Below, one piece after another: positions 15,193 through 19,096 of a stretch of DNA of 64,000 nucleotides. Under the pieces are notes generated by a model. That model made no database searches. It saw nothing but the letters and a program-made list of their open reading frames with translations, and was not told the origin of the DNA. Both the position numbers and the translations under genes were made by a program. The stretch's first letter is position 1. Each line of letters begins with the position of its first letter. Source of the DNA: Oceanispirochaeta sp. (GTDB lineage: Bacteria > Spirochaetota > Spirochaetia > DSM-2461); the NCBI GenBank assembly GCA_963663385.2, contig CAXXXD010000003.1:1312001-1376000 (forward strand), written 5' to 3'.

Positions 15193-15882
15193 TTACCGAA
15201 TCTCTGTTGAACACCCTTTTTCCAGAAATCTCGTCCTGTATTGAATAAGGAGAGATTCAGGAACCTCCGGCATTTCATTATAGGTCTCGGAAAGGCAGTG
15301 ACCCGGTTTAAACCCTGTAATTATATGGTTTTCCACTCCTTTAAGATAGTGCGCCATTTCCGGTACATTATCCAGAGAGAACAGCTGGGGGACTATGGTT
15401 GTTCTGATTTCATAGGGAATGTTTCCATTTTTCAGGATCCCAATGGATTGAATGATTCTTTCCGCCGAAGATTCGTCTCCGCCCAGTTCTGAATACCTGC
15501 GGGGAAGGGTCTTCAAATCCATAGCTACATAATCCACTTCCAGATCTGCCAGGATACGGGGGCTTAATCCATTAGTGTCTATCTTAACAGGCAATCCTGT
15601 TTCTTCCCGGATCTGTCTAATAAGGTCCGGTGTACCCGGATATAAAAGTGGCTCCCCCCCTGATAATACCACCCCTCCCAAAAGGGGAGCCCTGAATTTT
15701 ACATATTCAAATACTTCATTCCTGAGAAGCAGTCCTTCGGTCCTGCCGTAAGCCAGGTCTGGATTATGGCAGTAAGGACATCGCAGATTACAACCGGGGA
15801 AAAATATTACAGGGGCAATTTTTCCCGGATAATCAATCAGCGAGGTCTTCTGAAGACCGAATCGAACTGGAAGTTTCATCAA
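15193..15882 (-). CDS. nrdG: Anaerobic ribonucleotide reductase activating enzyme (radical SAM)
   Basis: SLIDYPG, GCNLRCPYCHN (CxxxCxxC), SGGEP and KIDTNG motifs; in the nrd operon; start may be ATG at 15879. Confidence 0.92.
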   Translation of the reverse strand: MMKLPVRFGLQKTSLIDYPGKIAPVIFFPGCNLRCPYCHNPDLAYGRTEGLLLRNEVFEYVKFRAPLLGGVVLSGGEPLLYPGTPDLIRQIREETGLPVKIDTNGLSPRILADLEVDYVAMDLKTLPRRYSELGGDESSAERIIQSIGILKNGNIPYEIRTTIVPQLFSLDNVPEMAHYLKGVENHIITGFKPGHCLSETYNEMPEVPESLLIQYRTRFLEKGCSTEIR

Positions 15883-15883
15883 T

Positions 15884-16396
15884 TCAGGCGGTGGCTTCGG
15901 AATTGATGAAACGAGTTTCTACATCTTTCGGATTACCCGTTCTGTAAATTTCATTTCCTTTCTTATCAAAAAACACGACTGTAGGGGCTGAGAAGATATT
16001 GAGTCTGGAAGCTTCTTCCATCCCTTCATCGGTATCAACATTAAAAGACTGAGCCTTCACACCCATAGATTTTAAAATTTCCTTCATGGGAGGGCAATTG
16101 GGACAGGTGGTTCTGAAAAAATAGGTATATGAGTTAAGAGAAGAGTCAGTAACATCTTCAACGGATTCGTAACTTACTTCGCCGGTCTGATTAACTTCTT
16201 TAATATCCCTACCGGTTATTGTAGAAAAGGGTACTCTTACTTTAAATTCTCCCCGTTTACCCAGGTTCCAGTTTCTGACAGATCTGTAATAGCCGACGAT
16301 TCTGGAATATACTTCAGTTTCCATGCCCTCTACCAGTTCCATTTCTTTTTTCAAAGAAAGGATCTCTTCATCGATTGCTTTGATCTTCTCTAACAT
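15884..16396 (-). CDS. Stand-alone NrdD glycyl-radical domain fused to a CxxC thioredoxin/glutaredoxin-fold domain
   Basis: EVYSRIVGYYRSVRNWNLGKRGEF (Gly35 matches the class III RNR radical motif); C98-P-N-C101 and SAPTVVF; own GGAGG RBS and TAATG overlap with the nrdD stop. Confidence 0.9.
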   Translation of the reverse strand: MLEKIKAIDEEILSLKKEMELVEGMETEVYSRIVGYYRSVRNWNLGKRGEFKVRVPFSTITGRDIKEVNQTGEVSYESVEDVTDSSLNSYTYFFRTTCPNCPPMKEILKSMGVKAQSFNVDTDEGMEEASRLNIFSAPTVVFFDKKGNEIYRTGNPKDVETRFINSEATA

Positions 16397-18510
16397 TATT
16401 TTCTTCCTCCCTCGGTCATTAACTGAGCTTTTTTCTCTTCCAGAGTTTTTATTTTGTTCTGTATTTTTTTTCTTTCTTCCTCCCGGCAGAGGGGACAGGA
16501 AAAGTGTTCGCCACTCAGATAGCCGTGAACCTTACAGATTGAAAATGTAGGCGAAATGGTAAAGTAGGGCAACTTATAATTATGGGCTATTGTTTTTACG
16601 AGTTCCATACAGGCTCTCCAGTCCTTAATAGCTTCACCCAGGAAACCATGAAAAACAGTTCCTCCCGTATAGAGCGTCTGCAGATTATCCTGCAAATCCA
16701 GAGCTTCGAAGATGTCCCGTGTATAATCAACAGGAAGCTGTGATGAGTTTGTATAGTAGGGATTATCATCGGTTCCCGAAGTAATAATATCCGGATAGTG
16801 CTTCTTGTCATGCCTGGCCAGTCTGTAGCTTGTACTTTCAGCAGGTGTGGCTTCCAGGTTAAAGAGGTCTCCCGTCTGCTCCTGATAATCAGCCAGACGA
16901 TCGCGCATGTGATTGAGGATCTCCGCTGAAAAAGCCATGGCTTCGGGATCGGTTATATCCTTACCCAGAAAATTCACCATACTCTCATTCATTCCATTAA
17001 GCCCGATGGTACTGAAATGGTTGTTCAGATGCTTCAGGTAACGACGGGTATAGGGAAACAGTCCCGCATCAAGAAGCTTATTAATAACCTTCCTTTTTAC
17101 AACCAGAGACTCTTTGGCAAGATCCATTAATTGATTCAGTCTTTCATAGTATTCTGATTTGGAACGGGCCAGATAGCCGATACGGGCCAGGTTTATGGTA
17201 ACAACACCGAGTGACCCGGTGAACTCATCCGAACCGAATAGACCACCGCCTCTTTTCCGCAGTTCCCGCTTATCAAGCTGCAGCCGGCAGCACATGGAGC
17301 GTACATCTTCGGGATTCAGGTCGGAATTGATAAAATTCTGGAAGTAGGGTGTTCCGTATCGGGCAGTCATTTCGAACAGGAGTCTGGCGTTTTCCGATTC
17401 CCATTCAAATTCCCTGGTTACATTGTATGTCGGAATAGGGTAGGCGAATCCGCGGCCATCCGCATCTCCCTGAATCATCAGCTCAATAAAAGCTTTGTTG
17501 ATCAGATCCATTTCCTTCCGGCATTCACCATAGGTAAAATCCTGTTCCCTGCCGCCGACAATAGCTTTTCTTTCAACAAGATCATGCGGTACATTCCAAT
17601 CGAGAGTAATATTGGTAAAAGGAGCCTGACTTCCCCAGCGGGAAGGTGTATTCACTCCGAAAATAAAACTCTGAATACACTGTTTAACAGCTTTGTAATT
17701 GAGCTTATCCACTTTAACAAAGGGAGCAAGATAGGTATCAAAACTGGAAAGCGCCTGTGCGCCGGCCCATTCGTTCTGCATTATTCCCAGAAAGTTTACA
17801 ATCTGAAATATAAGGGTGGAAAGGTGACTGGCCGGTTTTGATTTGATTTTCTCCGGAACACCGCCTAAACCTTCTTCAATCAGCTGCCGGATTGACCAGC
17901 CGGCACAATAACCGCTGAACATGGAAAGGTCATGAATATGCATGGCTCCGGTTCTGTGAGCCTCGGCAACACTTTTTGAATAAATATTCTTAAGCCAGTA
18001 ATTGGCTGTGATTGTTCCTGAATTATGAAGGATAAGACCTCCGAGAGAGAAATTAACATTGGCATTTTCATTTACCCGCCAGTCGGACTGAGAAAGATAC
18101 CCATCCATTGTTTCGTCAATGTCCAGCATCAGTTTTCTGGTATCACGAATTGCTTCATGTTTAGCTCTGTACAGTATGTAGGCTCTGGCGATTTCCACTT
18201 CATTATTTTCAATCAGAACAGTTTCAATCAGGTCCTGAATTTCCTCTACAGCCGGAGCCGAATTCGGGTGTCTGTCCGACATAAAAACAATAAGTTTTGC
18301 TTCTGTGCTTTTTGTCAGCGATTCCGTCAATTCGGGATCGCTTCCACGGGCTGCGGTAACAGCTTTTGCAATTGCGTCCTTTATCCGTGCCCTGTTGTAG
18401 GAAACAACACTGCCGTTTCTCTTCACAACACGGCGTATTATTGCTTCTGTAGGCGTCGGAACGTTATCCTCTATACCGAGGAACGAACGCCATTCATTCT
18501 GAGTGTCCAT
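16396..18510 (-). CDS. nrdD: Class III (anaerobic) ribonucleoside-triphosphate reductase large subunit lacking the C-terminal glycyl-radical motif
   Basis: N-terminal ATP cone (VVKRNG), HIHDL, GYCAGWS, finger loop RSMCCRL, LEATPAE, YYTNS, YTGGT and Zn motif CKVH...CPLC. Confidence 0.95.
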   Translation of the reverse strand: MDTQNEWRSFLGIEDNVPTPTEAIIRRVVKRNGSVVSYNRARIKDAIAKAVTAARGSDPELTESLTKSTEAKLIVFMSDRHPNSAPAVEEIQDLIETVLIENNEVEIARAYILYRAKHEAIRDTRKLMLDIDETMDGYLSQSDWRVNENANVNFSLGGLILHNSGTITANYWLKNIYSKSVAEAHRTGAMHIHDLSMFSGYCAGWSIRQLIEEGLGGVPEKIKSKPASHLSTLIFQIVNFLGIMQNEWAGAQALSSFDTYLAPFVKVDKLNYKAVKQCIQSFIFGVNTPSRWGSQAPFTNITLDWNVPHDLVERKAIVGGREQDFTYGECRKEMDLINKAFIELMIQGDADGRGFAYPIPTYNVTREFEWESENARLLFEMTARYGTPYFQNFINSDLNPEDVRSMCCRLQLDKRELRKRGGGLFGSDEFTGSLGVVTINLARIGYLARSKSEYYERLNQLMDLAKESLVVKRKVINKLLDAGLFPYTRRYLKHLNNHFSTIGLNGMNESMVNFLGKDITDPEAMAFSAEILNHMRDRLADYQEQTGDLFNLEATPAESTSYRLARHDKKHYPDIITSGTDDNPYYTNSSQLPVDYTRDIFEALDLQDNLQTLYTGGTVFHGFLGEAIKDWRACMELVKTIAHNYKLPYFTISPTFSICKVHGYLSGEHFSCPLCREEERKKIQNKIKTLEEKKAQLMTEGGRK

Positions 18511-18533: not shown

Positions 18534-19010
18534 TTACTTTTTATGATTTAGAGATTCATTATTAAGAGTTTCAATTACTTTTACAAATTCTTCCACGTTT
18601 TCAAAATGCCTGTATACAGATGCAAATCGAACATAGGCAACTTTATCCAGATCGAATAACTGGGTCATAATCATTTCACCCAGTTCCTCAGAGGAGATTT
18701 CATGAGATGACTTTCCTCTGAGATTAGCTTCATCCTCAATATCATGAAGGATACTGTCCAGCATAATCTGAGAAATCGGCCTCTTTTCTACGGCTCTCTG
18801 CAATCCCCTTTCCAGCTTTTTCAAATCGAAAGGCTGACGGGTATTGTCTTTTTTGACAACCATCAGAGGAATTTCTTCTACTTTCTCATAGGACGTAAAT
18901 CTATAGCCGCAGGAAGCGCATTCCCGTCTTCTGCGTATGGAAGTACCGCTTATATTCTGCCTAGACTCTATTACTTTATCATCTAAATTGCCGCAAAGGG
19001 GGCACTTCAT
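18534..19010 (-). CDS. nrdR: Transcriptional repressor NrdR
   Basis: MKCPLC...DKVIESR...IRRRRECASCGYRFTSYE Zn ribbon, ATP cone and VAYVRFASVY; start set at MKCP. Confidence 0.97.
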   Translation of the reverse strand: MKCPLCGNLDDKVIESRQNISGTSIRRRRECASCGYRFTSYEKVEEIPLMVVKKDNTRQPFDLKKLERGLQRAVEKRPISQIMLDSILHDIEDEANLRGKSSHEISSEELGEMIMTQLFDLDKVAYVRFASVYRHFENVEEFVKVIETLNNESLNHKK

Positions 19011-19022
19011 TTCCATCTCCAT

Positions 19023-19096
19023 ACCCCACATATGGGGCCCTATATAATGTGCTTCAAAGTTGTTTTTTTAATATAACACACCACATATGGAAAAAC
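19023..19096. promoter_or_regulatory. Tandem NrdR-box-like sites overlapping the nrdR operon promoter
   Basis: accccacatatggggc (19023-19038) and acaccacatatggaaa (19078-19093) share the core ccacatatgg, 55 bp apart; the second overlaps a minus-strand TTGTTT-17-TATATT promoter. Confidence 0.75.

Follow-up and report, generated by a model that had tools for sequence, protein, structure and literature searches.

All five solved NrdD sequences that we found, which belong to ribonucleotide reductases (RNRs) of class III, are single chains of 605-743 aa. The one-chain NrdD/NrdG systems of T. maritima (4COI/4U3E), P. copri (8P23) and phage T4 (1H78) share with the Oceanispirochaeta locus analyzed here the barrel, ATP cone, HxHD motif, double-cysteine finger loop, active-site Glu, Zn knuckle, glycyl-radical (Gly) loop, activase and NrdR context. 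The Oceanispirochaeta enzyme differs from them in that its Gly loop is on a separate gene product, two helices are added and a redoxin domain is fused. Small Gly-radical proteins likewise complete a large enzyme in trans in the case of pyruvate formate-lyase (PFL), whose autonomous glycyl radical cofactors are GrcA/YfiD in E. coli and, in phage T4, Y06I. However, YfiD, whose N-terminus is disordered, mends an enzyme that is complete when first made, whereas the large chain of the split NrdD is loop-less from the start. The small chain of the split enzyme is obligatory, carries a putative docking helix and a redoxin domain, and matches PF13597 rather than PF01228, the PFL-type family of YfiD. 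A natural two-chain RNR, NrdJa/NrdJb, is also known in P. aeruginosa, where the small C-terminal chain performs dithiol re-reduction; this enzyme is of class II with a B12 radical located off the small chain, and the available text of its description reports no coiled coil (PMC4520616). The class III RNR of Neisseria bacilliformis shares the double-cysteine finger loop and Glu and is reduced by thioredoxin, but it is a one-chain enzyme served by free thioredoxin and, in the available account, has SCCR where MCCR occurs here (PMC9669993). A literature search, mostly outside subscription papers, retrieved no published description of a two-chain NrdD of the helix-docked kind proposed below.

The window, a 64,000-nucleotide stretch of Oceanispirochaeta DNA, contains a minus-strand operon with the order nrdR-large chain-small chain-nrdG. 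The first gene (18534..19031, possibly starting a few codons further downstream) encodes the RNR transcriptional repressor NrdR, with its Zn ribbon and ATP cone (TIGR00244, 185 bits against a cut-off of 124.65). Three putative NrdR-box-like sites lie on the upstream side of the operon (19024..19093; matches at 19093, 19052 and 19038), identified with a pattern that we take to be that of the box. The last gene, nrdG (15193..15882), adjoins the small-chain gene and encodes the cognate radical-SAM activase (TIGR02495 NrdG2, 175.6 bits, cut-off 131.15).

The large NrdD chain (704 aa, 16396..18510; PRK08270, 1087 bits) matches positions 1-531 of the 562-position NRDD profile (E 1e-175). It comprises an ATP cone (residues 27-119, 18154..18432; PF03477, 70.6 bits), a 10-stranded barrel, a Zn knuckle (C659xxH662...C672xxC675, 16486..16536) that is invariant in 97 related tails, and a C-terminal helix with a proposed docking role (residues 676-704, 16399..16485). 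Its closest solved structure is T. maritima 4COI (E 1.2e-36), and comparison with that NrdD indicates that HxHD (191-194), C202, E553 and the double-cysteine finger loop MCCR (406-409, 17284..17295), which aligns with SCCR of T. maritima, are all retained. E553 aligns with T. maritima E495, the proton donor proposed in the available text of PMC9669993. The NRDD barrel, finger-loop Cys, beta-A Cys and HxHD that characterize class III RNRs are thus present, and so are the Zn site and Gly loop, but these two are divided between chains in place of the canonical layout with Gly loop and barrel on the same polypeptide. The small chain (170 aa, 15884..16396) begins with an N-terminal helix of proposed docking role (residues 2-23, 16328..16393), followed by the glycyl-radical loop (residues 28-50, 16247..16315), a flexible linker and a redoxin domain. 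The loop supplies NRDD positions 532-561, complementing the large chain, is invariant in 97 rows, and contains Gly35 (codon 16292-16294). The extents, lengths and motifs that the first-pass annotation gave for both ORFs agree with the sequence and the NRDD profile. Its placement of the glycyl-radical domain on a separate chain holds from the Gly loop onward, but not for the Zn knuckle, which is part of that domain in one-chain NrdD and here remains on the large chain.

The junction itself (16394..16410) reads as annotated at first pass, with a GGAGG ribosome binding site (RBS), a 9-nt spacer and a TAATG stop/start overlap. Public contigs from three studies (X1, X2 and X6; contigs, not raw reads), among 4 sequencing runs examined out of 14 listed, cross it without insertion or deletion. 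X1 and X2 possibly derive from the same source as the window DNA, while X6 represents another strain, since it differs from the window by 8 substitutions. The RNA run X11 yielded a small share and does not reach across the junction. Searching the 5.3-Mb genome by tblastn recovered no second NrdD piece, and the small chain is single-copy. Matches to this chain occur in 46 of 61 related genomes, the named close relatives being spirochaetes, and its 321 homologues range from 93 to 298 aa. A set of 159 loci, most of them retrieved by searching with the small chain or NRDD, was sorted by layout. Of these, 120 (the window genome and some duplicates included) are split and have the helices, hereafter helix-type, so that the conserved two-gene nrdD pairs proposed for a search at first pass were indeed found; 20 are split without long helices, 5 are fused and helix-less, 7 are cores with no loop found nearby, and 7 could not be scored. 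None of the 120 helix-type loci is fused. Several genomes had seemed from open-frame lengths to hold fused forms; in-frame stops occur in most of these, and the true fusions are all of the helix-less type. RBS scores were circular, as starts had been chosen by RBS, and were not used.

These observations make it virtually certain that the locus encodes a real, conserved two-chain class III RNR. The chance that the split reflects faulty sequencing or assembly, or a gene recently turned into a pseudogene by a frameshift, is negligible: a single A added at the junction would join both frames, as recognized at first pass and confirmed here, and coverage comes from contigs, but none of the three studies shows an indel, the 120 split loci have many junction geometries, and the helices are confined to split forms. 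It is scarcely more credible that programmed frameshifting, read-through or splicing yields a single polypeptide. This idea could be argued from the TAATG or ATGA overlaps at 26 of the 120 helix-type loci, and from phage nrdD genes, whose splits are attributed to introns, inteins or unexplained breaks in the available text of PMC3653736. Against it, intergenic gaps at these loci range from -26 to +346 nt with all three frame offsets (55/33/32), the window junction has no space for an intron or intein, and neither an intervening element nor a conserved slip site was seen in the junction sequence, the 120 loci or the complete genomes. Moreover, in the complete genomes G075, G099 and G133 the core and the small gene are separated by 603, 527 and 549 kb, respectively. 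The G075 small gene encodes 95 aa with the helix but no redoxin and precedes an nrdG-like ORF, and its distant core keeps the tail helix.

To place the split in an evolutionary context, we built a midpoint-rooted FastTree phylogeny of 158 cores, tails excluded. NrdD occurs in 83 of 151 genomes of the phylum, and among the matches listed at least 68 core matches, counted manually, end at NRDD position 525-539. All 98 helix-type cores in the tree form one clade (support 96), within which lie 4 one-chain sequences, 3 of them constituting a Rectinema-type group. Helix-less one-chain NrdD nested in this clade include P0126, P0127 and P0130. The nested forms suggest either that the chains were fused again and both helices lost, or that the base of the clade is poorly resolved. 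Cores of the helix-less split type fall in a clade of their own (99), within which the fused members are nested. In this second lineage (L045-L049, L051, L070, L073, L076, L077, L079, L083, L097-L103) the core ends in CPVHGY...CxxH and a short tail, and the small gene encodes 45-60 aa; its fused members (L052, L054, L055, L058, L059, L201) have variable linkers. A third split, outside the FastTree set, affects an MGCR-type NrdD, where a Gly-loop gene of 56-58 aa sits between core and nrdG (L062:2752-2928, L063:1054-1224). In all, no fewer than three separate lineages of the phylum have a split at the same place.

The first-pass annotation had also proposed that the chains dock through coiled coils. 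AlphaFold predicts both end segments as helical (pLDDT about 89-91 overall; 89 for residues 2-21 of the small chain), and we compared the helices in 97 non-redundant pairs (<80% identical over the helices), numbering large-helix positions from C675 (+n) and small-helix positions by residue. Both lie at a constant distance from their anchors, the last Zn Cys and the Gly motif, respectively. In the large helix, positions +8, +12 and +15 are 98-99% aliphatic, +22 is 78% aliphatic and +19 is K/R in 95% of pairs (I683, I687, L690, L697 and K694 in the window), whereas small-helix positions 5, 8, 12, 15, 19 and 22 (I5, I8, I12, L15, M19, V22) are aliphatic in 72-100%. When these core positions are matched across the chains, the two numbers always add up to 27, which corresponds to an antiparallel register, and the heptad cores share this common register as a coiled coil would. 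A Fourier test on a hydrophobicity scale gave p 0.52 for the large and 0.028 for the small helix; a test on aliphatic fraction gave p 0.023 and 0.0006, values to be read with caution because this version was picked afterwards.

The strongest helix-helix covariation joins +16 and 16, i.e. E691 and K16, followed by +18/3, +1/18, +9/2 and +11/11. At E691/K16 the charges are -/+ in 71 of the 97 pairs and +/- in 10, the other 16 contain a neutral residue, and like charges never occur. On the tree, charge changes at the two positions coincide in 6 of 6 cases, which is unique among 828 charged inter-chain column pairs (93 rows); the runner-up among the remaining 827 reaches 4 of 6. Restricted to well-supported branches there are 5 independent pairs (sign test p 0.0625), and the other charge pairs, with 2-4 independent pairs each, fall short of significance. 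Plain MI-APC over 21,717 inter-chain pairs, which across whole chains is dominated by relatedness, ranks E691/K16 third after two pairs of phylogenetic appearance. The anti-correlated pairs +11/11, +18/3, +1/18 and +4/18 match the antiparallel and not the parallel register; e-e' and g-g' contacts are typical of antiparallel coiled coils. Complex prediction for the helices alone (large 672-704, small 1-31, 97-row alignments) scored 0.18 against a mark of 0.32, in a run without controls, and is counted on neither side of the docking question. The helices are absent from 59 longer relatives save P0122, a deletion chimera missing half of the Zn site, and a weak search of these same 59 matches turned up no one-chain ancestor with both helices as a hairpin.

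Thus, the fixed heptad cores, the repeated charge swap and the lack of helices in longer relatives favor the docking proposal, and we regard helix-mediated docking of the two chains as likely. A less favored explanation is that the chains are held together chiefly by the Gly loop and its strand, with the helices serving self-association or NrdG recruitment. The second split lineage functions without long helices, each helix could instead self-associate, and the available text of PMC13450708 has the YfiD N-terminus helping activation and not catalysis. We nevertheless consider this explanation unlikely, as the helices are gained and lost jointly and their inter-chain charge swaps covary.

One feature overlooked at first pass is the redoxin domain of the small chain (residues 87-169, 15890..16138), a glutaredoxin/thioredoxin domain with C98-P-N-C101 and the downstream P138 (PF00462, 31.8 bits, cut-off 22.9). 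It is predicted with a pLDDT of about 90 behind a disordered linker and has a thioredoxin fold (Foldseek hits to thioredoxins, E 1.6e-5, prob 1.0); none of the named redoxin subfamilies in NCBIfam reaches its cut-off. The Cys pair is invariant in 43 rows, and a CxxC occurs in 120 of 120 helix-type loci, a count biased by the query; helix-type small chains without a redoxin exist. One-chain NrdD-redoxin fusions also exist (P0129, P0143 and P0149), which indicates that redoxin fusion was an event separate from the split. The genome encodes a thioredoxin reductase. Based on the fusion and on PMC9669993, of which part was available, the most likely role of the tethered CPNC domain is to return the active-site disulfide to its reduced state, with thioredoxin reductase feeding it. 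In the same available text, Burnim et al. describe MCCR enzymes as possessing the parts for formate or thioredoxin use; such enzymes may employ formate in place of redoxin (PMC9669993). This possibility and the helix-type small chains that lack the domain are points against the redoxin route.

Overall, there is good reason to expect an active two-chain class III RNR docked by an antiparallel coiled coil, whose binding, orientation, radical site and electron path we infer from the gene structure, conservation, domain content and covariation described above. In this model the break in the gene falls after the Zn knuckle and before the Gly-loop strand, with a three-heptad helix at each new end. 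Large-chain positions +8/+12/+15/+19/+22 would face small-chain positions 19/15/12/8/5, and an E691-K16 salt bridge would form within a coiled coil that replaces the covalent connection, only a few residues long, found in one-chain NrdD. NrdG would install the radical on Gly35, whose loop would enter the barrel and turn a thiol of the MCCR finger loop into a thiyl radical, after which the CPNC domain would reduce the active-site disulfide again with electrons from thioredoxin reductase.

Observations on phages bear on the purpose that the split might serve. Of 80 viral loci collected, 75 were scored: 23 have one-chain NrdD, 30 a short protein without a helix score, 21 a short protein with helix lacking a nearby core, and 1 such a protein with a core. 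Four of the 21 (L260, L279, L280 and L283) were discarded on inspection, leaving 17, which include two near-duplicate pairs. In 15 viral records searched whole, chosen mostly for a helix and no nearby core, the small piece stands alone without a core in 14, including all 8 chosen at ≥90% completeness, three of which have terminal repeats. No NrdG scored above cut-off in the 5 phage records tested. One viral locus (L214:3495-3995) encodes a full 166-aa helix-loop-CPNC protein among phage-like genes. The phage helices retain the core, with K16 in 12 of 18 rows. Phage-borne Gly-radical spare parts have been described in the available text of PMC8683613, and the phage solo small chains resemble T4 Y06I. 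In addition, several cellular genomes carry extra helix-less solo Gly-loop genes off the operon (L085, L088, L090-L092, L094-L096), several of them in what by eye are prophage-, Mu-like, plasmid- or conjugation-like surroundings.

The presence of phages with only the small piece suggests that this piece can be swapped. From the unlinked small genes and phage solo copies it is plausible, at somewhat under an even chance, that the small chain is exchangeable after oxygen damage. Oxygen might cut at Gly35 and an intact copy displace the helix stub, thereby reviving the 700-aa core, and phages might plug such a cartridge, which would bring both radical and reductant, into the host core so that dNTP synthesis continues; we hold this fuller scenario, too, to be nearly a toss-up. 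Another reading, compatible with the two-chain docked model since it concerns purpose alone, is that the split is neutral fission and the complex practically permanent, with no exchange after oxygen damage. The small chain is present in a single copy and apparently co-translated 1:1 with the core, reversion seems tolerated given the one-chain forms nested in the split clade, and cleavage at Gly35 would leave a docked helix stub that could block a new subunit. Another RNR, carrying NPCGE as well as a Zn finger at its C-terminus, is encoded elsewhere in the genome (G000:C3:1520350-1522635; L290:1851-4136); by motif it is an oxygen-tolerant class II type that could act as back-up. On the other hand, splits have recurred at the same place in separate lineages, and solo copies in genomes and core-less phages make sense only if the site is refillable. 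Neutral fission appears a serious contender, though somewhat less likely than not.

If true, the exchangeable cartridge would for the first time extend spare-part systems beyond formate lyases, and it would be one built in by design. A 2026 review, in its available text, has spare parts known for formate lyases only, leaves other glycyl-radical enzymes open and calls NrdG access to the buried glycine poorly understood (PMC13450708). The split NrdD makes the first point directly testable with two recombinant proteins, and its free Gly-loop chain offers a natural handle on the second. There are also consequences for annotation, as the small genes are currently labelled hypothetical, glutaredoxin or whole RNR, and the phage solo copies would form an overlooked auxiliary gene class. 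In the Oceanispirochaeta genome itself the 4 PF01228 matches all lie within frames of 793-823 aa, which encode PFL-like enzymes in one piece, and none of them is a short GrcA.

A profile of helix plus loop matches 2,260 proteins of 32-125 aa, among which there may be fragments. In P0010 and P0169, NrdD pieces are joined to radical-SAM sequence, which could represent small-chain/NrdG fusions or assembly errors. Phage genes for the helix-bearing small chain alone are found on viral contigs L210-L240 (e.g. L220:3462-3725), several with altered residues after the WN motif. Finally, one phage (L216, G212) has an NrdD of the split helix type, with an in-frame interruption of about 320 codons in its core that is perhaps an intein.
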